Shown here: piece after piece, positions 1 through 47,892 of the stretch | How positions within the stretch are numbered: the first letter of the stretch is position 1 | Layout: every line of letters begins with the position of its first letter | IMG/VR virus record: IMGVR_UViG_3300009703_000002 | Location: 1-47,892 of that record | Source of the DNA: a virus | Reading direction: 5' to 3' (one strand) | DNA: 47,892 bases | Position numbers and translations under genes: made by a program | The notes under the pieces: generated by a model | The model's database searches: none | The model's input: only the letters and a program-made list of their open reading frames with translations | Told to the model about the DNA's origin: nothing

Positions 1-123
1 AAAGCACTAATAATCCCATCTTGCCATTTAAACATTCCGGCTCTTGTTGAAGCCATATGACCATATAAAGACTGTCCTTCAGCTATCTGAGCTCGTGCTG
101 TATGAGTTTTCCAATCTTTTCCG
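1..123. repeat. Terminal redundancy, left copy (identical to 47770-47892)
   Basis: Direct reading: the window opens aaagcactaataatcccatcttgcc... The same string restarts at 47770 and runs to the last base. This implies a 47,769-bp unit genome. Confidence 0.9.
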
Positions 124-23546: not shown

Positions 23547-24560
23547 ATGAATAAGTACAGCTTAGAACAAAGGGTCTTTCTTTATGTAGAAAACACAAAG
23601 CTATTTAGAATAAAAGCCCTGAAAGACTTTGGTAATGTAAAGAAAGGTGACTACGGCGGATTTGTAGAGTCTGAGAAGAACCTATCTCAAGAAGGTAATG
23701 CTTGGGTATTTGGTAATGCTCAGGTATTTAGTAATGCTCAGGTATTTGGTGATGCTCGGGTATACGGTAATGCTCGGGTATTTGGTAATGCTAAGGTATA
23801 CGGTGATGCTAAGGTATACGGTGATGCTAAGGTATTTGGTAATGCTTGGGTATCTGGTAATGCTCGGGTATACGGTGATGCTCGGGTATTTAGTAATGCT
23901 CGGGTATCTGGTAATGCTTGGGTATCTGGTAATGCTCGGGTATTTAGTAATGTTCGGGTATACGGTGATGCTCGGGTATTTGGTAATGCTTGGGTATCTG
24001 GTAATGCTAAGGTATTTGGTAATGATTGGGTATCTGGTAATGCTCGGGTATTTAGTAATGTTCGGGTATACGGTGATGCTCGGGTATTTGGTAATGCTAA
24101 GGTATTTGGTGATGCTCGGGTATCTGGTAATGCTGAGGTATATGGTAATGCTCAGGTATATGGTAATGCTTGGGTATCTGGTAATGCTAAGGTATTTGGT
24201 GATGCTCGGGTATATGGTGATGCTAAGGTATACGGTGATGCTAAGGTATTTGGTAATGCTTGGGTATCTGGTAATGCTAAGGTATTTGGTGATGCTCGGG
24301 TATTTGGTAATGCTCAGGTATCTGGTAATGCTTGGGTATCTATAGAACCTTTCTTATTATCAGGTGGGAAATATAAGATAACTATTACAAACAAACATAT
24401 TGCAATAGGTTGTCAGCAACATACTTTTAAGCAATGGCATTCTTTTACTGACAAGGAAATTTTTGCTATGGATACAGGAGCTCTAACTTGGTGGAAAAAA
24501 TGGAAAGGTATGGTATTAAGTTTATACTTAGCTCATGAAGAAGCTTTGTCTAAGCGGTAA
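23547..24560 (+). CDS. Hexapeptide-repeat (left-handed beta-helix-like) protein: 49-aa N-domain, 36 tandem hexapeptides, 73-aa C-domain
   Basis: G[ND]A[QRKWE]V[FYS] repeats 36 times without a break. The N-domain is LFRIKALKDFGNVKKGDYGGFVESEKNLSQEGNAWV. RBS AAAAGGAAA. Confidence 0.8.
   Translation: MNKYSLEQRVFLYVENTKLFRIKALKDFGNVKKGDYGGFVESEKNLSQEGNAWVFGNAQVFSNAQVFGDARVYGNARVFGNAKVYGDAKVYGDAKVFGNAWVSGNARVYGDARVFSNARVSGNAWVSGNARVFSNVRVYGDARVFGNAWVSGNAKVFGNDWVSGNARVFSNVRVYGDARVFGNAKVFGDARVSGNAEVYGNAQVYGNAWVSGNAKVFGDARVYGDAKVYGDAKVFGNAWVSGNAKVFGDARVFGNAQVSGNAWVSIEPFLLSGGKYKITITNKHIAIGCQQHTFKQWHSFTDKEIFAMDTGALTWWKKWKGMVLSLYLAHEEALSKR
23694..24341 (+). repeat. 36 tandem copies of an 18-bp unit (GGTAATGCTNNGGTATNT)
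   Basis: Counted directly: 648 bp with no spacers, all in frame with 23547-24560. Confidence 0.95.
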
Positions 24561-25401: not shown

Positions 25402-25782
25402 ATGTATTTTTATTTAGGTTTAGTGTCCTTTATTGTTTTATTTAGTTTGCTATGGTATAAATCTACCATAAAAATAACTCTTATGAAACCAAGTAAAGTT
25501 CTTGAGTATATTAAGAAAAACTTTCAAAATAAGAAAGAGACTTCTAGTTACATTTGTATTAATTTAGAGGATTGTTATAGAAAAGGTCTTATAAAAAGAA
25601 CAGTTTATGATGAAATTCGTTCATTTATATCTCAACAATTAGAAGGCTGTGCATCATATGAGGGTTGGTTGATTGAAAAACGTTCTTTTCCTTATAAGAC
25701 AATTAAAAATACAGATTTACGTGAAGAGCGTATTAAGTGGCTTGGTAGTATGATTGATTATTATAAAGCTAGAGGAAGGTAA
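25402..25782 (+). CDS. Hypothetical membrane-anchored protein (126 aa)
   Basis: N-terminal hydrophobic segment YFYLGLVSFIVLFSLLWY; strong RBS AAAGGAGAAA. Confidence 0.6.
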   Translation: MYFYLGLVSFIVLFSLLWYKSTIKITLMKPSKVLEYIKKNFQNKKETSSYICINLEDCYRKGLIKRTVYDEIRSFISQQLEGCASYEGWLIEKRSFPYKTIKNTDLREERIKWLGSMIDYYKARGR

Positions 25783-25784
25783 GA

Positions 25785-26324
25785 ATGAAAAAACCACTTA
25801 TTTTGTGGGGAGGAACAGATATTGGGACACACTTATACAATGAAGAGCCTTCTTCATTTACTGAGAAGCCTGACGTTCCTCGTGATATTAATGAAGAATT
25901 ATTAGTAAAAGAAGCTATTAAAAAAGGACAACCTATTATAGGTATTTGTCGAGGTTCACAACTTCTTTGTGCTCTTAATGGAGGGAAATTATGGCAACAT
26001 AGTAAAACAAAGCAACAAAGTCATTCTATTGTTGTGGTTAAGGATGGACATTTAATTTCTATGTGTCCAGCAGACCATCATCAAATAATGATTCCTAAAG
26101 GAGATTTTGAAATCCTTGCTTATAGTCCTCATACTTCTTATATCTGGGACGAAGAGCAACAAACTTACTTTGAGGTTATAGATACACCAGAAGTGGTTTG
26201 GTTTCCTAAGACTAAGTGTCTTGCAATACAACCACATCCTGAATGGACAACTAAGGAACATCCTTTTGTTCAGTGGATAAATAAAGTAATACAAGAGTTA
26301 GATATTAATTATGAATTTAAATAA
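25785..26324 (+). CDS. Class I glutamine amidotransferase / peptidase C26-like (gamma-glutamyl hydrolase-like) protein (179 aa)
   Basis: Nucleophile elbow PIIGICRGSQLL and the His-Pro-Glu motif IQPHPEW. Confidence 0.7.
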   Translation: MKKPLILWGGTDIGTHLYNEEPSSFTEKPDVPRDINEELLVKEAIKKGQPIIGICRGSQLLCALNGGKLWQHSKTKQQSHSIVVVKDGHLISMCPADHHQIMIPKGDFEILAYSPHTSYIWDEEQQTYFEVIDTPEVVWFPKTKCLAIQPHPEWTTKEHPFVQWINKVIQELDINYEFK

Positions 26325-26335
26325 GAAAGGTACTT

Positions 26336-27124
26336 ATGTTTGATACTATTGGAACAGATATAGAAGTTTTTGGTCTTTCTAAAACAGGAAAACCCTCTGC
26401 TATATGTGGTAAAATTGGAGGGACTAAAGAAAAACCTTTACAATTAAAAGAACATCCTAAGGGATTCTCTATTCAAGAGGATAATGTTGCCTTGGAATAT
26501 AATATTCCTGCTTGTGTTGACGTTCGTCAGTTTATATCTTATGTAGAACATATGAACATTGAGACAGATAAAATCCTTAAAAAACAAAACTTAACTAAAT
26601 CAAAAGAGTGTGCTCTGGAATTTAGTAAAGAAGAATTATCTCACCCTAATGCCCTTATTTTTGGATGTGAACCTGATTATAATGCTTGGAAATTAGTTGA
26701 GAATAAAAAACCTCTTTCTGAAAATAAATCTTTGCGTACTTGTGGAGGACATATTCATGTAGGGACACAGGCTCCTATTATAGAAGTTGTTAAATGGATG
26801 GATTTACTTCTTGGAATTCCTTCTGTTATTCTAGATGATTCTCCACAATCAATTAAACGAAGACTTTTATATGGAAAAGCTGGAGCTATGCGTCCTAAAA
26901 GCTATGGTTTAGAATATAGGGTTTTATCTAATTTCTGGACTTTTAAAAACTCTTTGGTTTCTTGGGTCGGTCATCAAACAGCATATGCTGTTGATAAAGC
27001 CCTTCTTGTAGAGCCTATTCAGAAGTCTTTAGGGCAAAGAATTCAGAATTGCATTAATACAGGGGACAAGAAAGAAGCTTTGTCTTTAATTAAAAAGTTT
27101 AATATTAATATGCCTTCTAAATAG
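26336..27124 (+). CDS. Glutamine-synthetase/GCS2-like COOH-NH2 ligase (phage amidoligase type 2-like) (262 aa)
   Basis: GTDIEVF, VALEYNIP and CGGHIHVG strands resemble the phiEco32-type COOH-NH2 ligase family as I recall it. Needs profile confirmation. Confidence 0.5.
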   Translation: MFDTIGTDIEVFGLSKTGKPSAICGKIGGTKEKPLQLKEHPKGFSIQEDNVALEYNIPACVDVRQFISYVEHMNIETDKILKKQNLTKSKECALEFSKEELSHPNALIFGCEPDYNAWKLVENKKPLSENKSLRTCGGHIHVGTQAPIIEVVKWMDLLLGIPSVILDDSPQSIKRRLLYGKAGAMRPKSYGLEYRVLSNFWTFKNSLVSWVGHQTAYAVDKALLVEPIQKSLGQRIQNCINTGDKKEALSLIKKFNINMPSK

Positions 27125-27133
27125 AGGAGAGAA

Positions 27134-27691
27134 ATGAGTTTAAATATAGAATTAACTAATCTTTTTGAATTACTTAACCCTTGGAAAGAGGCTAGAAATA
27201 AATTAAATAATACATATCTAATTATAAATGATAGTTTGGTTTTTGTTAATCATATCTCGGCTGAAGAACAAACTATTTATTATGTAAGCCTATTTACTGC
27301 ACCTCATGAGAAAAGCCTTTGTGATCATGAAGTAAAGACACTAAAAATTTGGTTGCCAGAAGCAGGGGTATATATAAATCGTGAAACAGGGTTTGTGGTT
27401 CTTACTTATAAAACAGCTAAAAGACAGTGGCTTAGGAGTTATAGTCCTACTTATTATAATAGTCAATTTTTAGTAGAAGGAAATAAACAGCAATTTTATA
27501 GCCCTTGTGGTTCTAAAATAGAAACAATTTTTAAGTATCCAAGACAAGATATTTGGGTTTCTAAAGATAAATTTATTTATTATTGGGCATTGAAGATTGG
27601 TTTTATTAAAGATTCAGAGACAGTTGTTTGTACAGACAATAGATTTAAACAAGAGATAATTGATTGGAGTAAAAAAGATGCCTACTATTAA
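27134..27691 (+). CDS. Hypothetical protein inside the amidoligase cassette (185 aa)
   Basis: ORF track; RBS AGAGGAGAGAA. No motif recognised. Confidence 0.6.
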   Translation: MSLNIELTNLFELLNPWKEARNKLNNTYLIINDSLVFVNHISAEEQTIYYVSLFTAPHEKSLCDHEVKTLKIWLPEAGVYINRETGFVVLTYKTAKRQWLRSYSPTYYNSQFLVEGNKQQFYSPCGSKIETIFKYPRQDIWVSKDKFIYYWALKIGFIKDSETVVCTDNRFKQEIIDWSKKDAYY

Positions 27692-28718
27692 GTCTACTTG
27701 GTCACAAAATGAGGCTCTTGCATATTATGTAAATAATACTAATGAGACTTTAGATTCAGTTATAGATATTCTTACTGAGGAAGTAGAAATGAATGAAATT
27801 AAATTTAATAAGATAAAACCAACAAATAAATTAGGGGATTTATTTTCCTATAAAAAACTTTCTCCTTATGTAGGTTTAAGAGGTAGGATTCCCATCAGAG
27901 CAAATACAACTTATGTTGGAGTAGAAATTGAAGTAGAAAAGGTTTTATCTGGTATAACTTTAGCAGGTACTTGGAGGTATGATAATGATGGTAGTTTAAA
28001 AGATAATGGAGCAGAGTTTGTTACTATTCCTATTAAAGCTAAATATTTAGAAATAGAATTAAGAAGACTTTTTAGTTCTATTAAAAAATCAGAAGCTACT
28101 TGTAGATGTTCTACTCATGTACATTTAAATGTAAGAGATTTTACTTTAGAGGAATTAAAAGTCTTTCTTGCTATTTACATGGTTTTTGAAAAGAGTCTAT
28201 ATAATTTTAGTGGGGCTAGATGGAATAATAATTATTGTGTTCCTCTATTCAACACCTCTTCAGAAGTATTAAATTTTGTATCTCGCTTAGATAGAATGTC
28301 TATGAAAGATTTTCCCACTTTTATGCATAAATATTCAGGATTAAATACTTGCCCTATTTATGGTGGAGAAAGTAAATTATTTGGAACCGTTGAGTTTCGT
28401 CATATGGAGGGGACAAAGGATACTACTTATATTTTAAATTGGATTAATTTAATAATATCTTTAAAGATATTTGCGAAGAAAACTAGGTTTATAGATTTAA
28501 ATGTACACTTACAAACGATGAATACAACTTCGGGTTATTATTGGTTAGCAAAAGAAGTTTTTGGTAATTGGGTACATTTAATAACAGAACAAAAAAGTTT
28601 TAAATCTGATGTGGAATCTTGTATTACTAAAGCTAAAACAATCTTTCAAAAGAAGAAGACTATAAAAAAAGAATTAAAATTAAACTTATCTGGAAAGGAT
28701 ATAATATGTGTGGAATAG
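27678..28718 (+). CDS. Amidoligase (GS-like putative amidoligase family) (346 aa from MPTIKSTW)
   Basis: YVGVEIEVE, DNDGSLKDNGAEFVTIP, STHVHLNV and GTVEFRHMEGT motifs. The start at 27678 has GGAG 8 nt upstream. Confidence 0.6.
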   Translation: MPTIKSTWSQNEALAYYVNNTNETLDSVIDILTEEVEMNEIKFNKIKPTNKLGDLFSYKKLSPYVGLRGRIPIRANTTYVGVEIEVEKVLSGITLAGTWRYDNDGSLKDNGAEFVTIPIKAKYLEIELRRLFSSIKKSEATCRCSTHVHLNVRDFTLEELKVFLAIYMVFEKSLYNFSGARWNNNYCVPLFNTSSEVLNFVSRLDRMSMKDFPTFMHKYSGLNTCPIYGGESKLFGTVEFRHMEGTKDTTYILNWINLIISLKIFAKKTRFIDLNVHLQTMNTTSGYYWLAKEVFGNWVHLITEQKSFKSDVESCITKAKTIFQKKKTIKKELKLNLSGKDIICVE

Positions 28719-29926
28719 TAGGAATAATTTCAAAAGAAACGATGGGACTGTCCTCTTTTCAAACAAGTGCATTTAATCAGATGCTTTTTGTAGATCAATT
28801 AAGGGGTATGGATGGGACAGGTATATTCTATAATAATAAAAGATATAAGCCTTCTGTTCAACTTGTTAAAGGAGCTATGACAGCCTCAGCTTTTCTACAA
28901 ACAGAGGCTTTTATAAAAGCAGACAAACAAATATATCAACAAGCAAATTTTGTTATTGGTCATAACCGTGCTGCTACTAAAGGAAAACATACCTTTAAAA
29001 ATACCCATCCATTCAAAGTAAAACATATTACACTAATTCATAATGGTACTCTACGAACTCAAAAAGAGCTTCATCCTGATTTAGAAGTAGATAGTCATGC
29101 TATATGTCATAGTATTGCTGAGATTGGATATAAGAAAACCTTAGAAAAACTTAATGGAGCTTTTGCTTTAGTCTGGTTTAATTCTAAAACAGGAAAACTA
29201 CATTTTTGTAGAAATCATGAGAGACCTCTTTTCCTTATTGAGTGTAATTTATGTTATGTTATTGTCTCTGAAGCTAAATTAGCTGAGTGGATATTAAGTA
29301 GAAACGGGATTAAAATTAAAAAAATAGTTCAAGTTCCAACAGAAAAAGTATTCTCTTTTCATATTGAAAATATGGGAGTTTATACAGAAGAGGAAGTAGA
29401 TTATAAAGATTGGTACTCTAGTACTTGGGGAGGCTATGGAGGATATTTAAAGGATAAAGAGGAGCAGTTATATAAACCACTTAAATTTAAAAAAGGCGAT
29501 GTTGTAAGATTTAGGACTGGTAGAATGATTGGTAAAGAAGGAGCCTTAGGAAATTATATTGAAGCAGATATTTTTAAGAATCAATATATTAATGAGAAAA
29601 AATATATTGACCTTGATTATGAAGATAAATGGAGAATTAAAGTTATCCCTTCTAAAAAAGCTCCTTTAACAAGTAGTTTAAGGCATGAATATAATTGTGC
29701 TGGAGAAATTATTAATACAAGTCTTTCTAGCGATGGTAAAACTACTTTTTATTATGTAGATAATATTATTATTATAGATGAAGAGAGTAATACGGTTCCT
29801 AATAAAGGAGCTTTAGTAGAGTGTGATAGTTGCCATGAATTCTCAAGAGAGTCTCATGTGTATATACAAGGATTTTTAATGTGTCCTAGTTGTTGTCAAT
29901 CTACTTTTAATTCCCACTTTGGTTAG
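28706..29926 (+). CDS. Class II (Ntn) glutamine amidotransferase domain protein with a Cys-rich C-terminal domain (406 aa)
   Basis: MCGIVG N-terminal nucleophile, GHNRAATKG, IHNGTL and VDSHAI motifs. The C-terminus has CDSCHEF...CPSCC. Confidence 0.75.
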   Translation: MCGIVGIISKETMGLSSFQTSAFNQMLFVDQLRGMDGTGIFYNNKRYKPSVQLVKGAMTASAFLQTEAFIKADKQIYQQANFVIGHNRAATKGKHTFKNTHPFKVKHITLIHNGTLRTQKELHPDLEVDSHAICHSIAEIGYKKTLEKLNGAFALVWFNSKTGKLHFCRNHERPLFLIECNLCYVIVSEAKLAEWILSRNGIKIKKIVQVPTEKVFSFHIENMGVYTEEEVDYKDWYSSTWGGYGGYLKDKEEQLYKPLKFKKGDVVRFRTGRMIGKEGALGNYIEADIFKNQYINEKKYIDLDYEDKWRIKVIPSKKAPLTSSLRHEYNCAGEIINTSLSSDGKTTFYYVDNIIIIDEESNTVPNKGALVECDSCHEFSRESHVYIQGFLMCPSCCQSTFNSHFG

Positions 29927-29940
29927 AGGAGAAAAATTAT

Positions 29941-30660
29941 ATGAAAAAAGCAATTATATTATATCCTGATATAGCTAAGGATTCTGCTAATGAGTTAGCA
30001 GATGCTCTAGGAATTGATAGAGAAAATCCTTATGAAACAAAAAATAGGCATTTTTTAGCTTATGATACTGTAATTCGATATGGGTTTTCCAGACCAGTAG
30101 CAGCTAATTCTTTTATAAATCATCGTAAAGGAATTAATAGAGCTATTAATAAATTAAAAGTTTTCTCTCTTTTGAAAGATTCTGTTAAGACATTAGAGTT
30201 TACAGAAGATATTAATGTGGCTAAGAAATGGTTAAAGGACGGTCATTATGCTGTAGCAAGAGCTAAAGGGGACTCGTCTAATGGTATTGGAGTAAGTTAT
30301 TGTGATACTTTAGAAGAATTAGAGGAAGCTCCAGCTCTATTTTGGACTAAATATGTTTTTCATGAGAAGGAGTATAGAGTAAATTTTTGGAGAGATGAGG
30401 TTATTTCTGTCTATGATAAGATTGTACCTAACCATGATTTTAAATTTAAACTTATGTTTAGTTTAACTAAACACCCACAATTACTTGATTTCGCTGAGAA
30501 AATATATGATAAGATAGGATTAGATTTTTACGGAGCAGACTTTCTTTGTGATGAAAAAGGAACACTCCACTTACTAGAAATAAATTCCAGTCCAGTATTA
30601 TTTCCACACACAATAAAGAAACTTAAAGCTAAACTTGAAAAGGAATTACAAAATGATTAA
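29941..30660 (+). CDS. ATP-grasp ligase (RimK-like size, 239 aa)
   Basis: GADFLCDEKGTLHLLEINSSP (E-x-N Mg/ATP motif) with preceding Lys/Glu-rich strands. Confidence 0.65.
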   Translation: MKKAIILYPDIAKDSANELADALGIDRENPYETKNRHFLAYDTVIRYGFSRPVAANSFINHRKGINRAINKLKVFSLLKDSVKTLEFTEDINVAKKWLKDGHYAVARAKGDSSNGIGVSYCDTLEELEEAPALFWTKYVFHEKEYRVNFWRDEVISVYDKIVPNHDFKFKLMFSLTKHPQLLDFAEKIYDKIGLDFYGADFLCDEKGTLHLLEINSSPVLFPHTIKKLKAKLEKELQND

Positions 30661-31327
30661 AAAAATTATTGTAAAAATCTCAAAAGGAGCAGCAGAAATT
30701 TTTCAGTCTCTTGATATTAAGTTTGCTCTTGTAGCAGAAACAAATAAAGATACTTATACACAACAACATTTAGCAATTAAGTGTCGTGATTTTCTTGGGG
30801 ATTGTCTATGGAGTAAGAAAAAGAAATTAAGAGCTCAAATCTATGGTTTTTCTTACGACTTCTTAGAGGCTCCTTTTGATGCTAATGCTTTAAAATTAAC
30901 TTTAAAGTTTCCTAATGATATTTCTATGAAGAATTTTAAAGATAATATCTCTTATCTTCATAATAAAGAAGAACAAGCTGGAACAAAACTTTCAGAAGTT
31001 TTCCCAACAGATCAAGAAAACACCCTATTGGTTATCTCAGATAAAATCTGGCAGTCTTCAGTGTGGAAGATAAGTCTCATTACTTTTTATATGAAAATTG
31101 CTTCTTATAAAAATACTAGTTTATTAGAAGAACCAGAGGATAGTTACTTTGAAATCTTATCACCTAAAGCAGAAAAGACTCTTTTGAGTAAGGTATTGAA
31201 AAAAGATAATAAATGGCATAAAGAGATTAGTTATGTTCATAACTACAGTGGTTTTGTTTCCTTGATTAAGAGTAAAGAAAACCTATTACATGAAACATTC
31301 TTTGGAGAAAAAGCTAATGCGGTGTAA
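30653..31327 (+). CDS. Hypothetical protein closing the amidoligase cassette (224 aa from MIKKIIVKI)
   Basis: ORF track with the start moved to 30653, where the ATG overlaps the upstream stop region. No motif recognised. Confidence 0.55.
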   Translation: MIKKIIVKISKGAAEIFQSLDIKFALVAETNKDTYTQQHLAIKCRDFLGDCLWSKKKKLRAQIYGFSYDFLEAPFDANALKLTLKFPNDISMKNFKDNISYLHNKEEQAGTKLSEVFPTDQENTLLVISDKIWQSSVWKISLITFYMKIASYKNTSLLEEPEDSYFEILSPKAEKTLLSKVLKKDNKWHKEISYVHNYSGFVSLIKSKENLLHETFFGEKANAV

Positions 31328-31508
31328 ATGTTGCAATAAAAATTTAAGTGATTTTGAATCTACTCGTAAAGATGACTTAGGAGAATATTTTGATATGTGT
31401 AATCATTGTTTTAATGCGAGTGCTATTTCAGAAGAAGTTATAGTTGTAGATAGAGAAGACCTTTCTCATATTGATGATACTATTGTTGAAGGAGATGTAG
31501 ATGAATGA
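31317..31508 (+). CDS. Small zinc-ribbon-like protein (63 aa from MRCKCCNKNL)
   Basis: CKCC...CNHC cysteine pairs. GGAG lies 9 nt upstream of the ATG at 31317. Confidence 0.5.
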   Translation: MRCKCCNKNLSDFESTRKDDLGEYFDMCNHCFNASAISEEVIVVDREDLSHIDDTIVEGDVDE

Positions 31509-32799: not shown

Positions 32800-34842
32800 T
32801 TGCTCTTGGATAATCTCATGTCTAAATATGACAGAGACATTACCTTCCCAGAGTATCTCCATTCCGCGCAACAAGAGTGTCCTGATTATATACATCTCGT
32901 AGAGAGGTTACGAGATGAAGAGGTCGGTCAGGACATACTGCAAGACCTCATTCAAAAAACAATCGAGAGGCAGCAAGCATATGATCTATCTCTTCTCGCA
33001 ATTGATGCGGCAGAAGGTAGGAAACCTTTATCAGATGCTCTCGATTTCATGTCAAATATCCATGTAATAGAAGAAGAAGCAAACGAAGATGAATTTGTAA
33101 CAGATGATATTGAAGAGCTTTACAATGAAACAATTCATAAGAAGGGATTACGTTGGCGGCTAAATACTCTTAATAGGTCTCTTGGTAGTCTTAGAAAAGG
33201 AGACTTTGGGTTCATATTTGCTCGCCCAGAAACAGGTAAGACTACATTCTTAGCTTCAGAAGTAACAAATTTTGCAGAGCAAACTGATAAGCCTATCCTA
33301 TGGTTTAATAATGAGGAGGGTGGTAAAAAAGTTAAAGTGCGTATAGTTCAAGCATCTTTAGGTTATAATTTGACTCAGTTGTATAGCAATAGACCTCGTA
33401 GCCAAGAAGTATTTATTAAAAATACTAAAGGTAATATTAAACTTAAAGACTCTGCAACAATAACTAAACGTCAAATTGAGAAGCTGTGTAAAGAGTTTGA
33501 CCCTGCTCTCATAGTATTTGACCAGATAGATAAAATCAAAGGCTTTAATGCTGATAGAGAGGATTTACGTCTAGGTGCGATTTACATATGGGCAAGAGAG
33601 TTGGCAAAACAATATTGTCCCGTTATAGGTATATGTCAGGCAGATGTATCAGGAGAGAATAAAAAATATCTCACTATGGAGAATGTTGCCAATGCAAAAT
33701 GTTTAGCACCAAATACTAAGGTATTGATGTTTAATGGTAAATGGAAGAGGGTTGATTCTATCTCTGTAGGAGAACAAGTTATGGGTATTGATAATACACC
33801 AAGAACAGTTTTATCTACAACTAATGGGGTAGAAGAGATGTTTTCTGTTTCTCACAAAATAGGTGGAGATACCTATGTTGTTAATAAGTCTCATATTCTA
33901 GCTCTTGAAAGTCAATCTGGTAGAAAGATTAATAAAAATATTCTTTCTTATAATCAATTTGATTTTGGTTATCGGGTATCTCATAACCTTCCAGAAGCTA
34001 TTTTGCCTATAGACCCTTATTTTCTAGGAGCTTGGTTAGGTGATGGCGGGAAGGATAAGGCTGAGATTACTACGATAGACCCTGAGATTGTTGAAGTAGT
34101 TAAAGAGGAAAGTTCTAAATGGGGATGTACATACACTCAATATATTGAGAAAGAAAGTATAATACATGCTCGTATGAAGTTTCATCAAGGTATTAAACAC
34201 CCCTTTTTAAATAAACTTAAGGAACTTAATTTATATAGAAATAAACATATTCCCCAAGAATATTTTCAGAGTTCTATAGAGCAGAGGTTACAGTTAATAG
34301 CAGGTCTATTAGATACTGATGGGACAAAAGTAGTTAAGAAACATGAGTATTATAGTTTTTCTAACAAGAATTATCTAATTGCTCATGGTCTAAAAGAATT
34401 AGCTCTTTCTTGTGGTCTAATGGCAACATTTAAACAAAGAGGTATTTATTACTATGTAACAATATCTGGAAATGATTTAGGGATTATTCCCATTAGGATT
34501 AAAAGAAAGAAATCTAATTATAAGACACATAAAAATGTACTTAAATCGAGACTTAAAATTACTCCTTTAGGAGTAGGTGAGTATGCCGGAATTGCTATTG
34601 ATGGAGATCATTTGTTTATTATAGAGAATAATATTGTTACTCATAATACAAGTAAGCAAGCTGAGGCAGACTGGATTCTTGGTATAGGCACAGTTCATGA
34701 CGAGGGATTAAAGTATGTGCGATTCCTACACCTATCTAAGAATAAATTGACTGGTGATGAGGATAGTGACCCAGCCTTACGTCATGGACGAATGGACGTA
34801 TTAATCCAACCGGAGATAGCTCGTTATCGAGATTTTAAATGA
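32800..34842 (+). CDS. Replicative hexameric helicase (T7 gp4 C-terminal-half / DnaB-like) interrupted by an intein. The true start may lie upstream of 32800.
   Basis: Walker A FARPETGKTTF, Walker B LIVFDQIDK, and ICQADVSGE. After the intein, TSKQAEADWILGIG completes the motif. The track start is a TTG. Confidence 0.8.
   Translation: MLLDNLMSKYDRDITFPEYLHSAQQECPDYIHLVERLRDEEVGQDILQDLIQKTIERQQAYDLSLLAIDAAEGRKPLSDALDFMSNIHVIEEEANEDEFVTDDIEELYNETIHKKGLRWRLNTLNRSLGSLRKGDFGFIFARPETGKTTFLASEVTNFAEQTDKPILWFNNEEGGKKVKVRIVQASLGYNLTQLYSNRPRSQEVFIKNTKGNIKLKDSATITKRQIEKLCKEFDPALIVFDQIDKIKGFNADREDLRLGAIYIWARELAKQYCPVIGICQADVSGENKKYLTMENVANAKCLAPNTKVLMFNGKWKRVDSISVGEQVMGIDNTPRTVLSTTNGVEEMFSVSHKIGGDTYVVNKSHILALESQSGRKINKNILSYNQFDFGYRVSHNLPEAILPIDPYFLGAWLGDGGKDKAEITTIDPEIVEVVKEESSKWGCTYTQYIEKESIIHARMKFHQGIKHPFLNKLKELNLYRNKHIPQEYFQSSIEQRLQLIAGLLDTDGTKVVKKHEYYSFSNKNYLIAHGLKELALSCGLMATFKQRGIYYYVTISGNDLGIIPIRIKRKKSNYKTHKNVLKSRLKITPLGVGEYAGIAIDGDHLFIIENNIVTHNTSKQAEADWILGIGTVHDEGLKYVRFLHLSKNKLTGDEDSDPALRHGRMDVLIQPEIARYRDFK
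33700..34647 (+). mobile_element. Intein (316 aa) with a LAGLIDADG homing-endonuclease domain
   Basis: Starts with Cys (CLAPNTKVLMF), ends with THN, and the +1 residue is Thr. It has a block B-like VNKSHIL and two LAGLIDADG motifs (FLGAWLGDGG, LIAGLLDTDG). Confidence 0.85.
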
Positions 34843-35993
34843 AACCCTTAATACTTGATGTAGAAACAACTATCAGTAATAAAGGCAATCCTTTTGACCA
34901 ATCTAATAAATTAGTTTGTGTTGGAATAAAAACAAAAGAAGTCTCAGAGATTCTATATATTCCAGGTTCATTGGAAGACTATATGTATCTACAAGGATAT
35001 ATAGATTCTTGTGATATTCTGGTAGGATTTAATATCAAATTTGATCTACATTGGTTAAGAAAAATTGGAATTAAATTCGACCATAAACCAATCTGGGATT
35101 GTCAATTAGGTGAGTTTATCTTAAATAATCAAAAAATTAAGATGCCTAGTTTAGATGATAGTTGTGAACGAAGAGGACTAGGAAAGAAAATTGATACAAT
35201 TAAACTTAATTATTGGGATAAAGGTATCAATACAGATGAAATTCCTCGTGAGGAACTATCTGAATATTTAGCTCAAGACCTAGCATTGACAGAAGAACTA
35301 TACAAGATACAACGAGAAATCTTTCAAAAAGATAATCGGTATCGAGTATTTAAACTTCAATGTCAAGATTTACTTGTCCTTGAAGAAATGGAATGGAATG
35401 GACTTGTCTTTAATACAGAAAAGGCTCGTGCTAGAGCTAAAGAACTACAAGGAACTTTAGATGGAATCTACAAAGAGATTCTTAATACAGTTGGCAACAT
35501 TCCTATTAATATTAACTCTAATCATCATCTTTCCGCTATTCTTTATGGTGGGAATATCGTGGTGGAGTCTCGAATACCTATCGGGGTATTTAAAACAGGT
35601 AAGAAAATAGGACAAATAAGAAACAAAGTAATTAAAAAGGTTTATGAATTACCCCGTTTGGTTGAGCCATTAAAAAATACAGAGGCAAAAGTACCAGAAG
35701 GAAGTTTACCAATATGGAAAACAAATGAGGATATTCTTAGAGCGTTAAAGGCTAACAAGTCTACACGGTATCTAATAAATTTATGCCTTGAATTTGCTAG
35801 TGTTGAAAAATTAAGAGGTACATACCTTGAAGGTTGGAGCAATCTAATTGATAAAATGAATTGGCCTCACAACAAGATACACGGTAATCTTAATCAGACA
35901 ACAGCCATAACATGTAGATTAAGTAGTACAAAACCTAATTTACAGAATGCCGATCCAATAACTAAAATATATTGTGAGAGTAGATATGAATGA
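34839..35993 (+). CDS. Family A DNA polymerase, piece 1 (3'-5' exonuclease domain and the N-terminal part of the polymerase domain, 384 aa)
   Basis: Exo motifs LILDVETT, GFNIKFDLHWL and YLAQDLALT are present. It ends just after RLSSTKPNLQN, which normally precedes motif A. Confidence 0.8.
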   Translation: MKPLILDVETTISNKGNPFDQSNKLVCVGIKTKEVSEILYIPGSLEDYMYLQGYIDSCDILVGFNIKFDLHWLRKIGIKFDHKPIWDCQLGEFILNNQKIKMPSLDDSCERRGLGKKIDTIKLNYWDKGINTDEIPREELSEYLAQDLALTEELYKIQREIFQKDNRYRVFKLQCQDLLVLEEMEWNGLVFNTEKARARAKELQGTLDGIYKEILNTVGNIPININSNHHLSAILYGGNIVVESRIPIGVFKTGKKIGQIRNKVIKKVYELPRLVEPLKNTEAKVPEGSLPIWKTNEDILRALKANKSTRYLINLCLEFASVEKLRGTYLEGWSNLIDKMNWPHNKIHGNLNQTTAITCRLSSTKPNLQNADPITKIYCESRYE

Positions 35994-36090: not shown

Positions 36091-36804
36091 ATGATAATTA
36101 ACTGTGATGCAAAGGGACTAGAATGGTATTGTGCTGCCTATCTCTCACAAGACAAGGTAGCAATGCAAGAGATTTATGATGGAATTGACCAACATGGAAG
36201 TAATCAAAAAGCATTTGGTCTTCCCACTAGATTAATCTCTAAGGTATTTTTATTCCGTATTATTTATGCAAATTTAAAGTATGCAGCACATACATATGCT
36301 AATGATGCAGATTTTATGGGAACAAGTTCTAGTAAGAAATTTTGGCAAAAAGTAATAGATGAATTCGTAACTAAGTATAATGGATTCACAGCATGGCATG
36401 ATAGACTAGTTCAAGAGGTAACTCAAACAGGACGGATAGTCATGCCCACTGGAAGAATTTATTCTTTTGATAGAGATAAAAAAGGCGAATGGCCTATTAC
36501 TCAGATATATAATTATCCAGTACAGGGACTTGGTGCAGATATTATGTCTATTATACGAATATCATTTAGAAAGAGGTTTATAGATGCAGGTGTCGCTGGT
36601 GTTATTATTAATACAGTCCACGATTCTATTGTCGTTGATGTACCCAAACATGAATTACCCAGAGTGGCTCAAATATTTTATGATGTATTTAATGACTTTC
36701 CAGCTAACTTTAAGCGTGTTTTTGGTTTGGAATTTAATCTTCCATTAAGATGTGAGATTCTATATGGAAATAATATGAAGGAGTTAGAAGAGTATGGGAT
36801 ATAA
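36091..36804 (+). CDS. Family A DNA polymerase, piece 2 (motifs A, B, C; 237 aa)
   Basis: Motif A-like INCDAKGLEWYCAAYLS, motif B-like RLISKVFLFRIIYA, and motif C-like NTVHDSIVVD. Confidence 0.8.
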   Translation: MIINCDAKGLEWYCAAYLSQDKVAMQEIYDGIDQHGSNQKAFGLPTRLISKVFLFRIIYANLKYAAHTYANDADFMGTSSSKKFWQKVIDEFVTKYNGFTAWHDRLVQEVTQTGRIVMPTGRIYSFDRDKKGEWPITQIYNYPVQGLGADIMSIIRISFRKRFIDAGVAGVIINTVHDSIVVDVPKHELPRVAQIFYDVFNDFPANFKRVFGLEFNLPLRCEILYGNNMKELEEYGI

Positions 36805-41055: not shown

Positions 41056-41447
41056 AGCCAAAGAAAGTTTATGATGACCACAAAAGGCATGCTTTAGATA
41101 GAGGTATTGGTTGGCAAATATCCTATGAAGATTGGTTAGAATTATGGTTGAATAGTAATAAATGGACACAACGAGGAAAAACAAAAGGTAAGTATCAAAT
41201 GTGTCGGTATGGTGATACAGGAGCTTATAATATTAAGAATTGTTATATAGGTTCTGTAGAACAAAATCAAGAAGACCGCTCCAAGATTAATATTAGCGTT
41301 GTTAGGGCTATTGTCTTTGAGTACCTATCATCAGGAAAAACTCAGTATGACGTTGCAAAAGAATTCGGTGTAGACCAATCTTATGTGAGTCGTCTTGTAA
41401 ACAAGCACAGGAGGAATCATGGACAAATCCATCAGACAAGCAATTAA
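41052..41447 (+). mobile_element. Free-standing homing-endonuclease-like gene (131 aa) inserted within nrdJ
   Basis: RYGDTGAYNIKNCYIGSVEQNQED resembles the HNH_3 pattern HH-x-DG-x5-N-x2-NL-x4-EN but lacks the first His. The C-terminal helix-turn-helix is TQYDVAKEFGVDQSYVSRLV. ATGA overlap upstream; 29-nt overlap downstream. Confidence 0.55.
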
Positions 41448-43167
41448 AGATTTAGATATATGTCCTAGTATGCGTTTAATGATGTCAGCAGGTGAAGCTT
41501 GTAATCGAGATAATATTTCAGCCTATAATTGTGCTTATGTGGCTATTAATAATAAACGAGCTTTTAGTGAAGCTCTTTATGTATTAATGAATGGTACAGG
41601 AGTCGGATTTAGTTGCGAGAGACAGGAAATTGCTGGTCTACCAGTAGTACCAGAAAAGCTTGAATATGTTGATGATGTTGTTGTAATTGGAGATAGTAAA
41701 TTAGGATGGGCAAAAGCTTTTAAGAAATTATTATCATCTCTTTGGGAAGGAGACATACCTACATTTGATTTCTCTCGTGTCAGACCCGCAGGGGCTAGAC
41801 TCAAGACATTTGGTGGACGTGCCTCTGGGCCTGACCCTTTAAAGAAGCTCTTCGACTTTGTTGTTGAAACCTTCAAAACAGCACAAGGACGCAAGCTTAC
41901 TAGCCTTGAAGTCCACGACATTATGTGTATGATTGGGGAGATTGTAGTAGTTGGTGGTGTTCGTAGATCGGCTTTGATTAGTTTATCTAATCTTACTGAT
42001 AAAAGAATGAGAGAAGCTAAATCAGGTGCTTGGTATAATGATTATTCATATAGAGGATTAGCTAATAATAGTGTTTCTTATACCGAGAAGCCTGATGTTG
42101 AAACTTTTATGGAAGAATGGCTTAGCTTAGTTAAATCTAAATCAGGTGAGCGTGGAATCTATAATCGAGTGGCTGCTCAAAACCAAGCCTCACGATGGGA
42201 TAGGAGAGCTAAGGATATAGCTTATGGAACAAACCCATGCAGTGAAATCATCTTACGAGATAAGCAATTCTGTAATCTCACAGAAGTAGTCGTGCGACCA
42301 AACGACACCTATGAAACTCTTAAACATAAAGTAGAATTAGCAACAATTCTAGGTACTATTCAATCAACACTGACAAATTTTAATTTTCTTAGTGAAGCTT
42401 GGAAAAAGAATACGGAAGAAGAAAGATTGCTTGGCGTATCCTTAACTGGTATCATGGATAATGAATTTCTTAGTGGTTCTGATAGGCCAAAAGGAGACGA
42501 TTATTTACCACAAGCTTTGGAGAACTTAAGAGCTTATGCAAGAATAACAAATGAAAAGTGGGCTAAAAAACTGGATATTCCTGTTTCTACTGCTATTACT
42601 TGTGTTAAGCCTAGTGGTACAGTATCTCAATTGGTGGATAGTGCTTCTGGGATTCATGCTAGGCACAATCCTTATTACATAAGACGTATTCGAATGGATA
42701 AAAAAGACCCTATATATACATTTTTAAAAGATAAGGGTATTCCAGTAGAAGACGAGGTTTTTAGACCTGAGAGTACTGCTGTATTTAGTTTTCCAATGAA
42801 GGCTCCTGACAATGCTATCTGTCGTAATGATATGACTTCAATTGAGCAACTTGAACTATGGTTAATTTATCAACGACATTGGTGTGAGCATAAACCTTCA
42901 GTAACTATTACAGTTAAGGATTCGGAGTGGCCTGAAGTAGGTTCTTGGGTGTGGAAATATTTTGATGAAATTAGTGGAGTTAGTTTTCTTCCTCATTCTA
43001 ATCATACATATCAACAAGCCCCATATGAGGATATAACAGAAGAAAAATATAATGAATTGCTATCTCAAATGCCTACAGGTATTAATTGGGAAGAGTTTGT
43101 AGAAGATGAGGATAACACAGAAGGTACACAGACACTAGCATGTGCTGCTGGTAATTGTGAGATTTAA
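41419..43167 (+). CDS. nrdJ: Class II (cobalamin-dependent) ribonucleotide reductase, main body (582 aa)
   Basis: CPSMRLMMSAGEA, AYNCAYV, GTGVGFS, the catalytic loop TNPCSEIIL...FCNLTEV, and the C-terminal Cys pair CAAGNCEI. Confidence 0.85.
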   Translation: MDKSIRQAIKDLDICPSMRLMMSAGEACNRDNISAYNCAYVAINNKRAFSEALYVLMNGTGVGFSCERQEIAGLPVVPEKLEYVDDVVVIGDSKLGWAKAFKKLLSSLWEGDIPTFDFSRVRPAGARLKTFGGRASGPDPLKKLFDFVVETFKTAQGRKLTSLEVHDIMCMIGEIVVVGGVRRSALISLSNLTDKRMREAKSGAWYNDYSYRGLANNSVSYTEKPDVETFMEEWLSLVKSKSGERGIYNRVAAQNQASRWDRRAKDIAYGTNPCSEIILRDKQFCNLTEVVVRPNDTYETLKHKVELATILGTIQSTLTNFNFLSEAWKKNTEEERLLGVSLTGIMDNEFLSGSDRPKGDDYLPQALENLRAYARITNEKWAKKLDIPVSTAITCVKPSGTVSQLVDSASGIHARHNPYYIRRIRMDKKDPIYTFLKDKGIPVEDEVFRPESTAVFSFPMKAPDNAICRNDMTSIEQLELWLIYQRHWCEHKPSVTITVKDSEWPEVGSWVWKYFDEISGVSFLPHSNHTYQQAPYEDITEEKYNELLSQMPTGINWEEFVEDEDNTEGTQTLACAAGNCEI

Positions 43168-43530: not shown

Positions 43531-43725
43531 ATGAAACAACTTAAAAAAGATTTACAGTCTTTAGTAGAAGACATACGAACAAATTCAAAGATTAATATGA
43601 AGGAACAACATCCTCTATTTAAGTGGAAGTATGATGATGATCCCACGATTGAATTTCAATTAATGATTAGAGAAATTGAAGAGTTCGCACCTGAGCAACT
43701 TGAATTTAATTTGAAAGATAAGTAA
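43531..43725 (+). CDS. Hypothetical protein (64 aa)
   Basis: ORF track. Confidence 0.5.
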   Translation: MKQLKKDLQSLVEDIRTNSKINMKEQHPLFKWKYDDDPTIEFQLMIREIEEFAPEQLEFNLKDK

Positions 43726-44102
43726 TGAAAGCTTGTATAATTGGTAGTCGCTCTATTACTAGACCAGAAGTAATCTTTCCTATTATTGATAAATTTATTC
43801 GTAATCATATTATAGGAGAACCAACTATAATTAGTGGTGGAGCAAATGGAGTAGATTCAAATGCAAAAGAATATGCTAAGGTTCAAGGATTTGATTTTGT
43901 TGAATTCCTTCCCTATCATTTAGTAGATAAACACACACCTTTTTCTGCAAAACACTTTTATTCTAGAAATAGGCAGATGATTTCTAATGCAGATATTGTA
44001 CTTGCTATATGGGATGAAGAGTCTTCTGGTACTCAGCACTCAATTAAGTATGCTCAGAAGCTTGGAGTCCCTGTTATGGTGGTAAAAGTACCTAAATCTT
44101 AA
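43725..44102 (+). CDS. SLOG/DprA-LOG-like Rossmann protein (DUF2493-like) (125 aa)
   Basis: IIGSRS...ISGGANGVDSNAKEYA...IWDEESSGTQHSI fits the GGAxGxD-type SLOG pattern as I recall it. Confidence 0.5.
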   Translation: MKACIIGSRSITRPEVIFPIIDKFIRNHIIGEPTIISGGANGVDSNAKEYAKVQGFDFVEFLPYHLVDKHTPFSAKHFYSRNRQMISNADIVLAIWDEESSGTQHSIKYAQKLGVPVMVVKVPKS

Positions 44103-46733: not shown

Positions 46734-47892
46734 CTATTTACCTTTCTGAGCATCTAAGTCTTTCATTAGTTCTCTACCTTCTTCAGTCTTCTCCATAACA
46801 TGCCTAGCATCCTCTAAATCTGCATCATATTTATCATTGTAATGATTATAAATGTTAAGTAAGATAGCTTCCTTTTTATTTTGGGCATTATATCTACTTA
46901 AAGATAGTACGGCATTTATTAATTCATTACGGTAGCTTTCAGGATACTCAAACAAAATTGTATTTAATCCAGATAAATATCTGTCATATTCTATAAAGGA
47001 ATCTGATGAGGTTCCAAGAGCTTTTTGTAAAGCAATTAGTCTAGTATGAATCTCCTTAGCATCTTTTTTAATATCTTTTTGTCTATCAATTAAACTCTTA
47101 GTAGCTTGTATTTGATTAAATTCTTCTACAGGCATAATACCAGCTAGTCTAGCTACTGCTTCAGCCCTAGTTTGTTGTACACCTACTAGTTGACCTGATT
47201 TACTTATTCCTTCTATTAATTGATACTTACCATAATCAGATAATACACCAGCAAAAGATACTGCTGTCCATATAGCAGCTTGTTGTGCTACTGGGTCTGT
47301 AATATCTCTATTATCTACATAAAATATATCGTGCATTGTTCTTACAGCATCAAATAAAGATGTTCCTGCTTGAACAAAAGGAAAGCGTTGATCTGGTTTT
47401 TCACCAGAAGACATTTTAACAAGTGTTTCTATAATATCATATAAGAATACTGTGTCTACAACAGTAGACAGACTTTTACCAGCTTCTACACGGGCTGGTC
47501 TATCTCCATCTTCTGCTACAAAGGCATCTAATACACCATTATAGATTCTATTGGTCATGCTTTCAGTCCATCTAGCTAGAGTCTCTCTATCTTCTGGGTC
47601 ATCAACATTCCTTTCTACAGCCGCATATAAAGCAGCTCCAATAGGAAGACCATACTTACCATACCAAAATAATCTAGCAGCAGCAAGTCGTGCTTTTTCT
47701 GCTCCAGTAAACTCTTTAGCACTCATCATTTGTAAAGTAGATTTCCAAGGAATAGCTACAAACTGAGTAAAAGCACTAATAATCCCATCTTGCCATTTAA
47801 ACATTCCGGCTCTTGTTGAAGCCATATGACCATATAAAGACTGTCCTTCAGCTATCTGAGCTCGTGCTGTATGAGTTTTCCAATCTTTTCCG
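46734..47892 (-). CDS. C-terminal part of the ~863-aa internal virion protein that starts at 1556
   Basis: The frame stays open upstream of the track's Met at 47825 to the window end, and continues seamlessly into 1-1556 through the 123-nt redundancy. Confidence 0.6.
   Translation of the reverse strand, partial: GKDWKTHTARAQIAEGQSLYGHMASTRAGMFKWQDGIISAFTQFVAIPWKSTLQMMSAKEFTGAEKARLAAARLFWYGKYGLPIGAALYAAVERNVDDPEDRETLARWTESMTNRIYNGVLDAFVAEDGDRPARVEAGKSLSTVVDTVFLYDIIETLVKMSSGEKPDQRFPFVQAGTSLFDAVRTMHDIFYVDNRDITDPVAQQAAIWTAVSFAGVLSDYGKYQLIEGISKSGQLVGVQQTRAEAVARLAGIMPVEEFNQIQATKSLIDRQKDIKKDAKEIHTRLIALQKALGTSSDSFIEYDRYLSGLNTILFEYPESYRNELINAVLSLSRYNAQNKKEAILLNIYNHYNDKYDADLEDARHVMEKTEEGRELMKDLDAQKGK
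47770..47892. repeat. Terminal redundancy, right copy (identical to 1-123)
   Basis: Same as the left copy. The repeat lies inside an open reading frame on the minus strand. Confidence 0.9.

Follow-up and report, generated by a model that had tools for sequence, protein, structure and literature searches.

The DNA analysed here, referred to as the window, comprises positions 1 to 47,892 (47,892 nt) of the IMG/VR virus record IMGVR_UViG_3300009703_000002, and this study concerns a block of seven plus-strand genes at 25785-31327, about 11.6% of the genome, that encodes five putative enzymes of amide-bond chemistry together with two proteins matching no known family. The original prediction had listed eight consecutive plus-strand open reading frames (ORFs) in 25402-31327; all eight were found, and every motif quoted from their translations was present. 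The seven genes of the block are listed below, where LIG1 denotes the first ligase, AMID2 the Amidoligase_2 enzyme, GAT2 the Ntn amidotransferase, GRASP the ATP-grasp enzyme, and GS glutamine synthetase.

25785-26324, plus strand: C26, a class-I glutamine-amidotransferase-like thiol hydrolase, 179 amino acids (aa) (Pfam Peptidase_C26)
26336-27124, plus strand: LIG1, a phiEco32-type COOH-NH2 ligase type 2 of the GCS2/GS-like carboxylate-amine ligase superfamily, 262 aa (PF14395)
27134-27691, plus strand: ORF4, a conserved non-enzymatic core protein, 185 aa (homologue family, AlphaFold2 model)
27678-28718, plus strand: AMID2, a GS-like Amidoligase_2, 346 aa from its ATG, a TTG start at 27660 being also possible (PF12224)
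28706-29926, plus strand: GAT2, an Ntn (class II) glutamine amidotransferase (residues 1 to about 250) with a variable C-terminal domain ending in a Cys4 zinc ribbon (GATase_6)
29941-30660, plus strand: GRASP, a short ATP-grasp carboxylate-amine ligase, RimK/Ddl/TTL-like, 239 aa (phrog_2599, 5e-26)
30653-31327, plus strand: ORF8, a lineage-specific accessory protein, 224 aa (homologue family, AlphaFold2 model)

Eighty IMG/VR loci with relatives of LIG1 were collected, their six-frame ORFs were searched with hidden Markov models (HMMs) made from the cassette proteins, and counts were taken from the 60 loci having at least 1.5 kb of upstream and at least 7 kb of downstream sequence. Amidoligase_2, the Ntn amidotransferase, and the ATP-grasp enzyme (the last detected by an HMM from cassette ATP-grasp proteins) were each found near LIG1 at 59 of the 60 loci. 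C26 lay upstream of LIG1 at 54 loci and a primase gene downstream at 51; ORF9, the gene that follows the block, was nearby at 46, the ORF4 family at 45, the ORF8 family at 28, and a gamma-glutamyl cyclotransferase (GGCT) at seven. The two commonest gene orders were that of the window with ORF8 (22 loci) and the same order without it (17 loci). The genes were not scattered in related genomes; scattering was the outcome that the original prediction had named as telling against it. The cassette has a four-enzyme invariant core and a conserved putative adaptor, and four of its five enzyme families are near-invariably linked. A putative gamma-glutamyl-cleaving enzyme, C26 and/or GGCT, was part of nearly every version; an HMM from three cassette GGCTs detected no GGCT in the window, where C26 alone represents this feature. 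The window carries PF14395, PF12224, the Ntn amidotransferase, the ATP-grasp enzyme, C26, and a protein of about 190 aa between the two GS-like ligases, and these genes are contiguous, on the same strand, and directly upstream of primase and helicase genes in a podovirus-type genome.

The block had been put forward as a fresh, uncharacterised candidate system, a claim that did not survive comparison with the literature and with GenBank. The same arrangement has been published as a conserved "seven-gene peptidoglycan modification cassette" of podoviruses, the function being a prediction (PMC5498523; PMC6256558; PMC11945000), which these citing papers trace to Iyer et al. 2009 and Hardies et al. 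2013. Phages named as carrying it are RIO-1, phiEco32, 7-11, PA11, tf, MR299-2, LUZ24, PaP3, and CW02 (PMC5498523; PMC6256558; PMC11945000; PMC3890496; PMC10580990). By tblastn, LIG1 matched 312 GenBank phage records, with hosts that included Pseudomonas, Escherichia, Vibrio, Aeromonas, Proteus, and Salmonella. The closest was MW202697.1, an uncultured podovirus from Manatee Spring (54% identity), and a near-identity DNA search against GenBank phages returned nothing. The window is an environmental copy of a phage cassette that has long been known, is widespread, and is still unsolved as to function. In a LUZ24-like phage, the genes for the amidoligase and the amidotransferase had gained missense changes in two lines that evolved independently (PMC11450229).

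All five enzyme assignments of the original prediction held. Four of them exceeded the Pfam cut-offs, and PHROGs support for all five (about 2e-26, 4e-66, 1e-40, 1e-73, and 5e-26 in gene order) was much stronger than that from Pfam. C26 matched Peptidase_C26 at 6.7e-18 (65.7 bits, cut-off 20.5), GATase at 4e-7, and phrog_7218 at 2.3e-26. It is N-terminally short, beginning at position 62 of the 219 positions of the Pfam model, and retains the G-x-C-R-G nucleophile and H-P-E motifs, both of which were kept in at least 90% of 63 homologues. Matches among PDB sequences were 3fij (5e-10) and PuuD (6vtv, 6.7e-6); Lin1909 and PuuD count as remote, sub-threshold relatives in the NCBIfam and PDB sequence searches. 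Against NCBIfam, amidotransferases of the GuaA, TrpG, and PurQ types scored as well as gamma-glutamyl hydrolases, all far under their cut-offs; the PuuD model gave 24.3 bits against a cut-off of 266, and amidotransferase models scored alike. C26 is, from its sequence, a candidate gamma-glutamyl-bond hydrolase or a candidate second ammonia donor. LIG1 matched COOH-NH2_lig (PF14395) at 1.2e-12 (48.1 bits, gathering cut-off 25) and phrog_3815 at 3.7e-66, and was 36-54% identical to the proteins of PaP3, KBNP1711, CW02, and MW202697; a profile search of the PDB found no relative. Five phage lineages shared invariant GxDxExF, QEDN, GCxPD, RTxGGHxHxG, and YGKAxAxRxKxYGxEYRxLSN motifs in LIG1. AMID2 matched Amidoligase_2 (PF12224) at 1.4e-9 (38.7 bits, gathering cut-off 22) and phrog_7469 at 1.2e-40, and GxExExE, DGSL, GxExV, RxxxHxH, and ExR were invariant in five lineages. 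The invariant motifs of the two ligases are predicted to be metal- and phosphate-binding.

The N-terminal 250 or so residues of GAT2 matched GATase_6 at 2.6e-16 (60.3 bits, cut-off 27), with further matches to GATase_7 and GATase_4, and residues 1-254 alone matched phrog_4736 at 1.4e-73. NCBIfam and PDB sequence matches to the N-domains of GlmS, AsnB, and PurF were remote and sub-threshold. The MCG, GHNR, HPF, HNG, and DS residues were kept in at least 90% of 51 lineage homologues, and Cys2 directly follows the initiator Met. The C-terminal domain was poorly conserved, and the columns of its terminal Cys cluster (zinc ribbon) were mostly gaps in homologues; we therefore argue that the ammonia acceptor site probably lies on another subunit. 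In GRASP, the Lys and D..ExN motifs were kept in at least 90% of 65 homologues, and the best match among PDB sequences was D-Ala-D-Ala ligase (E 0.026). The PHROGs family of GRASP is named "ribosomal protein S6 glutaminyl transferase". GRASP is not a member of the RimK family (Pfam RimK, 16.7 bits against 21; TIGR00768, 20.1 bits against 143), though it may act in a RimK-like manner. Pfam detected no Mur ligase domain in any cassette protein.

The two remaining proteins had been described as orphan partners. Neither matched a known family, as had been claimed, but the two proved not to be equivalent, ORF4 being part of the universal core and ORF8 a lineage-specific partner of LIG1. The proposed structure prediction and Foldseek comparison gave confident models of both and no significant fold match in the PDB for either. 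An exhaustive search collected 127 representative homologues of ORF4. Its AlphaFold2 model (predicted local distance difference test, pLDDT, 92.1; predicted template modelling score, pTM, 0.84) consisted of two N-terminal helices, two small SH3/Tudor/KOW-like beta-barrels, and a C-terminal helix; the best Foldseek matches, at E 0.035, were barrels of eIF5A, Kin17, and SGF29. When an ORF4 profile was compared with 23 cassette proteins of PaP3, KBNP1711, and CW02, the top three were its positional equivalents, namely PaP3 orf47 (p = 1.5e-4), CW02 gp8 (6.7e-3), and KBNP1711 gp088 (8.5e-3), all others being above 0.038. A profile-profile comparison with the gp088 family gave an E-value of 7.9e-4 and aligned the motifs PExGxY, PxRQxxK, and YYxxxxxG. 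This support came only from the deeper profile; with a profile of just two sequences, the comparison to the phiEco32-type gp088 family fell short of significance (E 0.15), and a word-indexed protein search returned the self-match only. The statistics for equivalence across lineages are modest; identical position and size add to the case. ORF4 has no catalytic signature. It is a universal, non-enzymatic core component of the cassette, and its modelled fold makes it a predicted scaffold or acceptor-binding adaptor.

ORF8 had 87 homologues, in which C44-R-D-F-L-G-D50 was invariant and H196-N197 nearly so. Its AlphaFold2 model (pLDDT 92.4, pTM 0.90) matched no PDB fold (best E 0.07), and the sole match in BFVD was an uncharacterised protein of an uncultured phage. 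ORF8 is dispensable: several relatives that lack it pass directly from the ATP-grasp gene to ORF9, and some carry two copies. At one locus (L007), ORF8 lies directly upstream of LIG1, and ORF8 stays beside LIG1 in reduced clusters (L099, L101, and L103) that are without AMID2, GAT2, and GRASP. ORF8 is a lineage-specific LIG1 partner with a predicted fold that matches no solved structure. Other lineages have their own proteins beside LIG1, PaP3 orf49 and orf50 and KBNP1711 gp090 and gp091, which are unrelated to ORF8 and to one another; orf49 and orf50 are restricted to Pseudomonas phages, and a proposal that orf49 and gp090 form a common pre-ligase family found no similarity between them. Comparison of ORF8 with the accessory proteins and GGCTs of PaP3, KBNP1711, and CW02 gave no signal (all p > 0.08).

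Two other readings of ORF8 were rejected. An NlpC/P60 AmiA-like amidase was suggested by a PF07313 match in one of 85 members (P0195), which past about residue 175 has no resemblance to the C-terminus of the window ORF8 and comes from an 842-bp contig; we take it for a chimera or an uncommon fusion. The idea that ORF8 and GGCT substitute for and exclude each other was dismissed because both occur together at four loci (L099, L101, L102, and L103). The reduced clusters (L103, 9092-14858; L099, 768-7600; L101, 1083-6900) consist of one or two ORF8-like genes, LIG1, C26, a 457-aa protein with a weak nucleotidyltransferase-head match over about 40 residues, a GGACT-type cyclotransferase, and a second C26, in the order ORF8-ORF8-LIG1-C26-(nucleotidyltransferase-like)-GGCT-C26, without Amidoligase_2, the Ntn amidotransferase, or the ATP-grasp enzyme. 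The cluster in L103 adjoins genes for peptide deformylase and a T4 Rnl1-type RNA ligase.

With modest confidence, we favour a reading in which the cassette is a cytoplasmic, ATP-driven assembly line for a gamma-glutamyl or amidated peptide that includes a trimming step. LIG1, as a GCS2-type ligase, would form a gamma-glutamyl-type amide together with its partner ORF8. AMID2 would activate a second carboxylate, to be coupled to an amine or else amidated with ammonia that GAT2 provides in trans, and GRASP would extend a carboxylate by an amino acid, in the manner of Ddl, RimK, or GshB. The tandem beta-barrels of ORF4 may hold the acceptor or the enzymes together. C26 would finally take off the gamma-glutamyl group, in deprotection and maturation or in turnover, a place that GGCT would occupy in other lineages. 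No signal peptide was evident in the seven cassette proteins when their translations were judged by eye. Several points weigh against this reading. The reaction order is guesswork, and the roles given to the non-enzymatic proteins and the nature of the acceptor are likewise our suppositions; C26 could be a genuine second glutaminase instead of a hydrolase, and ORF4 and ORF8 could have a regulatory role outside the machinery itself. The Pfam matches of GRASP, to TTL, Ddl_C, and RimK, were all slightly under the gathering scores. A full-text literature search found no demonstrated product, substrate, target, or phenotype for any cassette member, which agrees with the original prediction that clusters of this kind (Aravind group, phiEco32 type) had only been predicted. 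As a rough division among acceptors, a peptidoglycan precursor peptide leads but is itself doubtful; a host or phage protein tail and a soluble gamma-glutamyl peptide or polyamine conjugate are each less probable than that, nucleic acid or a nucleotide is improbable, and the remainder falls to other acceptors.

The distribution of LIG1 bears on whether the product would be an ordinary metabolite. Among 185,579 bacterial and archaeal species (one genome per species), LIG1 occurred at only 43 loci, nearly all on contigs of metagenome-assembled genomes and most of these well under 60 kb; most of the cellular-genome loci with enough flanking sequence bore the same cassette, and some also had phage replication genes. 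Because of this small number and this context, the LIG1 family is in effect confined to phages and does not represent a metabolic gene borrowed from a host. It is unlikely, in our view, that the cassette makes and recycles a small soluble gamma-glutamyl peptide, peptide amide, or gamma-glutamyl-polyamine, glutathione-like or Puu/Pau-like, to shift host redox, polyamine, or nitrogen pools, since the near-absence of LIG1 from cellular genomes would be unusual for a borrowed metabolic gene and such a product leaves no obvious need for the conserved beta-barrel adaptor ORF4 or for lineage-specific partners. Glutathione is made in two steps, by GshA and then GshB, and a GCS2-type ligase with an ATP-grasp ligase mirrors that logic. 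The resemblance of C26 to PuuD is also in keeping with a soluble product, as is the action of the GGCT enzymes of other lineages on free gamma-glutamyl compounds. The original prediction had invoked PuuA/PuuD logic, which the gene content did not bear out: no cassette protein matched Gln-synt_C, the PuuA-type domain, in Pfam at E<=0.1, and no PuuB/PuuC-type oxidase or dehydrogenase was present in a Pfam scan that covered 20 ORFs of at least 90 aa, almost all on the plus strand, with the large minus-strand ORFs compared with PHROGs only. One paper annotates the ATP-grasp enzyme as a glutathione synthase and proposes a role in nitrogen metabolism (PMC10945688).

The published name of the cassette reflects a different proposal, in which the three ligases rebuild or alter unusual stem-peptide linkages and the glutamine amidotransferase amidates them, either to block superinfecting phages or to ready the wall for lysis (PMC5498523; PMC6256558; PMC11945000; PMC10580990). 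We regard it as a tentative possibility. The best solved-structure match of GRASP, D-Ala-D-Ala ligase, is weak but of the appropriate kind, and the hosts named for the phages matched by LIG1 are Gram-negative genera. The cassette of phage PSA-HP1, a relative of the window, is transcribed immediately after infection (PMC7082346), and glutamine-dependent amidation of stem peptides is established for MurT/GatD (PMC3267633). The idea rests on analogy, however, and among the Pfam results for the cassette there was nothing of a Mur-ligase, UDP-sugar-binding, lipid II-related, or periplasm-targeted kind; the literature searched yielded no report of muropeptides analysed in infected cells. The sole membrane-anchored neighbour of the block, which the original prediction had placed before the set, is the following.

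25402-25782, plus strand: membrane-anchored ORF, 126 aa, directly before the C26 gene

This ORF is present, but a single-sequence HMM detected no relative of it in related loci at E<=1e-3, and for that reason it was left out of the unit; that none was detected there also counts against a wall-directed function.

On its other side, the block is followed by a second conserved small gene.

31290-31508, plus strand: ORF9, a zinc-ribbon protein with an acidic tail, 72 aa, overlapping ORF8 and the primase gene

ORF9 stood between the cassette and primase in 46 of the 60 loci, and its family is characterized by MRCxxC...TRK...CNxC followed by a strongly acidic tail of variable length with a variable last residue. 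ORF9 as a LysW- or S6-like carrier with a defined C-terminal glutamate was not supported because the terminal residue varies; ORF9 could serve the replisome as an accessory protein, or the cassette could act on it. Such a neighbour is of interest if the cassette tags a host or phage protein, at its tail or on a side chain, with glutamyl or other amino-acid units that might be amidated, in the manner of RimK on S6, tubulin tyrosine ligases and glutamylases, or pupylation by PafA, with ORF4 as adaptor and C26 or GGCT as de-tagging enzyme. That possibility we likewise consider unlikely. The best Pfam and NCBIfam matches of GRASP, TTL and RimK, and its PHROGs name are those of protein-modifying ligases, but all RimK and TTL scores are under the family cut-offs. 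The tandem SH3/Tudor/KOW-like module of ORF4 is of a fold typical of peptide and translation-factor binding, and accessory proteins beside LIG1 that differ by lineage and are mutually unrelated (ORF8; orf49 and orf50; gp090 and gp091) are as expected under host-specific target recognition. However, the ORF9 tail lacks the conserved terminal residue of LysW, S6, and Pup, and no small conserved tag gene is common to all lineages. More speculative and less probable still is a phage-only conjugation system that attaches a short gamma-glutamyl or amidated peptide tag to a specific macromolecule, either a target in the takeover of the host or a protein of the phage replisome, for instance ORF9; ORF4 would then be the universal substrate-presenting adaptor, the lineage-specific LIG1 partners such as ORF8 the specificity factors, and C26 or GGCT the eraser. 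If true, the cassette would be a viral counterpart of pupylation or of glutamylation of the tubulin type, as opposed to wall chemistry.

An exact 123-bp repeat occurs at both ends of the window (1-123 and 47770-47892), as a terminal repeat or a circular assembly overlap, and the window is therefore a complete phage genome with a unit of 47,769 bp. No tRNA genes were found in it. Pfam and PHROGs placed the terminase, portal/adaptor, major head, podovirus tail, and SLT transglycosylase genes on minus-strand arms, and the cassette, then replication and accessory genes, on the plus-strand arm; the genes after the cassette encode a primase, a DnaB-type helicase with an intein, a split family-A polymerase, a 5'-3' exonuclease, endonuclease I, a class II ribonucleotide reductase, and a holin. 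Within the block, genes are spaced from -38 to +14 nt. The start-stop overlaps at 27678/27691, 28706/28718, and 30653/30660 are real, and Shine-Dalgarno-like GGAG or AAGGA precedes each start, so that co-translation as one unit, as originally proposed, stands. What did not stand is a boundary at 31327, beyond which tight or overlapping genes go on with the zinc-ribbon gene (31290-31508) and primase (from 31505); because of this continuous packing, the block is not a self-contained operon. A scan found no terminator-like sites within the block, and it counted 58 promoter-like sites against 57 expected by chance. The block is apparently co-transcribed with the replication genes of a 47.8-kb podovirus.

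That the cassette always adjoins primase, helicase, and polymerase genes would also suit a role in nucleic acid chemistry, with the ligases decorating a base or nucleotide with an amino acid or amide and thereby protecting phage DNA or disturbing nucleotide-based defence. Uncharacterised amidoligase and amidotransferase genes lie beside thymidine-hypermodification genes in viromes (Lee et al., PMC8989533), and the reduced LIG1-C26-GGCT cluster includes the weakly nucleotidyltransferase-like protein. We nevertheless judge this explanation very improbable. The Pfam scan described above, which took in 20 ORFs of at least 90 aa, almost all on the plus strand, contained no dUMP or dCMP hydroxymethylase, hydroxymethyluracil (hmU) kinase, aGPT-Pplase, DpdA, or queuosine genes; in the same scan, the hallmark genes of thymidine hypermodification (dUMP hydroxymethylase, TET/JBP, 5-HMUDK, and aGPT-Pplase) were missing, in agreement with the original prediction. 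Of 16 restriction enzymes, 11 cut the DNA of U17, a LUZ24-like phage that bears the cassette (PMC11945000), and many cassette phages have been sequenced and restriction-mapped with no anomalies reported.

Some further features of the genome were recorded outside the cassette. The sign of the GC skew flips near 22 kb and 44 kb, matching the switches between the minus-strand structural and plus-strand early/replication arms. The DnaB-type replicative helicase gene (32800-34842, plus strand) is split by an intein with a Hint domain and a LAGLIDADG homing endonuclease, as in the relatives L005 and L006, and the family-A DNA polymerase is encoded by two plus-strand ORFs, 34839-35993 and 36091-36804, 97 nt apart, a split shared by related contigs. 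A 337-aa beta-solenoid protein (23547-24560, plus strand; YdcK repeat 4e-37, bactofilin 2e-11) contains dozens of GNAxVxGxA-type repeats, and a 215-aa ORF in another frame of the same DNA (23698-24345; MLGYLVMLRYLV...) mirrors the repeat out of frame and is not a gene. At its far end, the plus-strand arm encodes a class II (B12-type) ribonucleotide reductase (41419-43167, plus strand) and a 125-aa SLOG/DprA-like protein (43725-44102, plus strand).

More than 15 years after the cassette was predicted, we found no report of what it makes. It fills about 12% of the small genome of a lytic phage and is conserved in three or more families of podoviruses, among them Pseudomonas and E. coli phages under development for therapy, and its solution would probably reveal either a new infection-stage wall modification or a new virus-specific conjugation chemistry. 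The present analysis adds a quantified invariant core, the recognition of ORF4 as a universal non-catalytic component, and that of ORF8 as a LIG1-linked family of unmatched fold. Cultured phages offer better entry points to its function than the window does.

Among known cassettes, that of ctOsX528 (MW202697.1) and about 50 IMG/VR contigs is closest in content, with C26, LIG1, ORF4, AMID2, GAT2, the ATP-grasp enzyme, ORF8 in one or two copies, and ORF9 as in the window, followed likewise by primase, an intein-bearing helicase, and a split PolA. Identity between ctOsX528 and the window was 54% for LIG1, 34% for ORF4, and 45% for ORF8. This lineage differs in having no nucleotide-level match to the window, and ORF8 is missing in some relatives and doubled in others. 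The LUZ24/PaP3-type cassettes (Bruynoghevirus; PaP3 orf48-orf42, UFV-P2 ORF21-29) have LIG1, an ORF4 equivalent of about 190 aa, AMID2, GAT2, and the ATP-grasp enzyme in the window order and directly upstream of primase and helicase, but carry a GGCT/AIG2 gene and no C26, have orf49 and orf50 in place of ORF8, and encode longer GAT2 and ATP-grasp proteins. The phiEco32 type (Gordonclarkvirinae; KBNP1711 gp091-gp079), the type example for PF14395, shows the core order of the window upstream of primase and helicase, with gp088 as the ORF4 equivalent; it differs by GGCT in place of C26, the unrelated gp090 and gp091, a GAT2 of 627 aa, an ATP-grasp protein of 405 aa, and a genome of 76 kb. Zobellviridae (Salinivibrio phage CW02 and Pseudoalteromonas phages RIO-1 and PSA-HP1) have members of all five enzyme families, a class-I amidotransferase among them, upstream of primase and helicase, but in the order C26, GAT2, LIG1, ..., AMID2, ATP-grasp, GGCT, with both C26 and GGCT. 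In CW02 (L004), the small proteins gp10, gp11, gp13, and gp17 (5035-5514, 5511-5726, 6471-6692, and 7508-7801) share the end ...L(E/G)(E/D)N(V/A), commonly ...LEENV. The window has no counterpart of this C-terminal tail, whose position beside ligases of a C-terminus-modifying type is suggestive.

Similarities to characterized enzyme systems are more partial. In PuuA/PuuD (and Pau), a GS-superfamily ligase forms a gamma-glutamyl amide that a C26 hydrolase breaks, and the window C26 matches PuuD as given above; the window cassette differs in being without a Gln-synt_C-type ligase, in its additional Ntn amidotransferase, ATP-grasp enzyme, and adaptor proteins, and in being phage-restricted. In butirosin biosynthesis, BtrJ, an ATP-grasp enzyme, adds a gamma-glutamyl group as a protecting group, which the gamma-glutamyl cyclotransferase BtrG removes, on a carrier-bound intermediate. 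The cassette resembles this pair in logic only, as the window is without an acyl carrier protein or aminoglycoside genes. In MurT/GatD, a ligase activates a peptide carboxylate and a separate glutaminase gives ammonia in trans, the arrangement that we infer for AMID2 and GAT2; whereas MurT/GatD combines a Mur-ligase fold with a class-I amidotransferase, the window would pair a GS-like ligase with an Ntn-type glutaminase.

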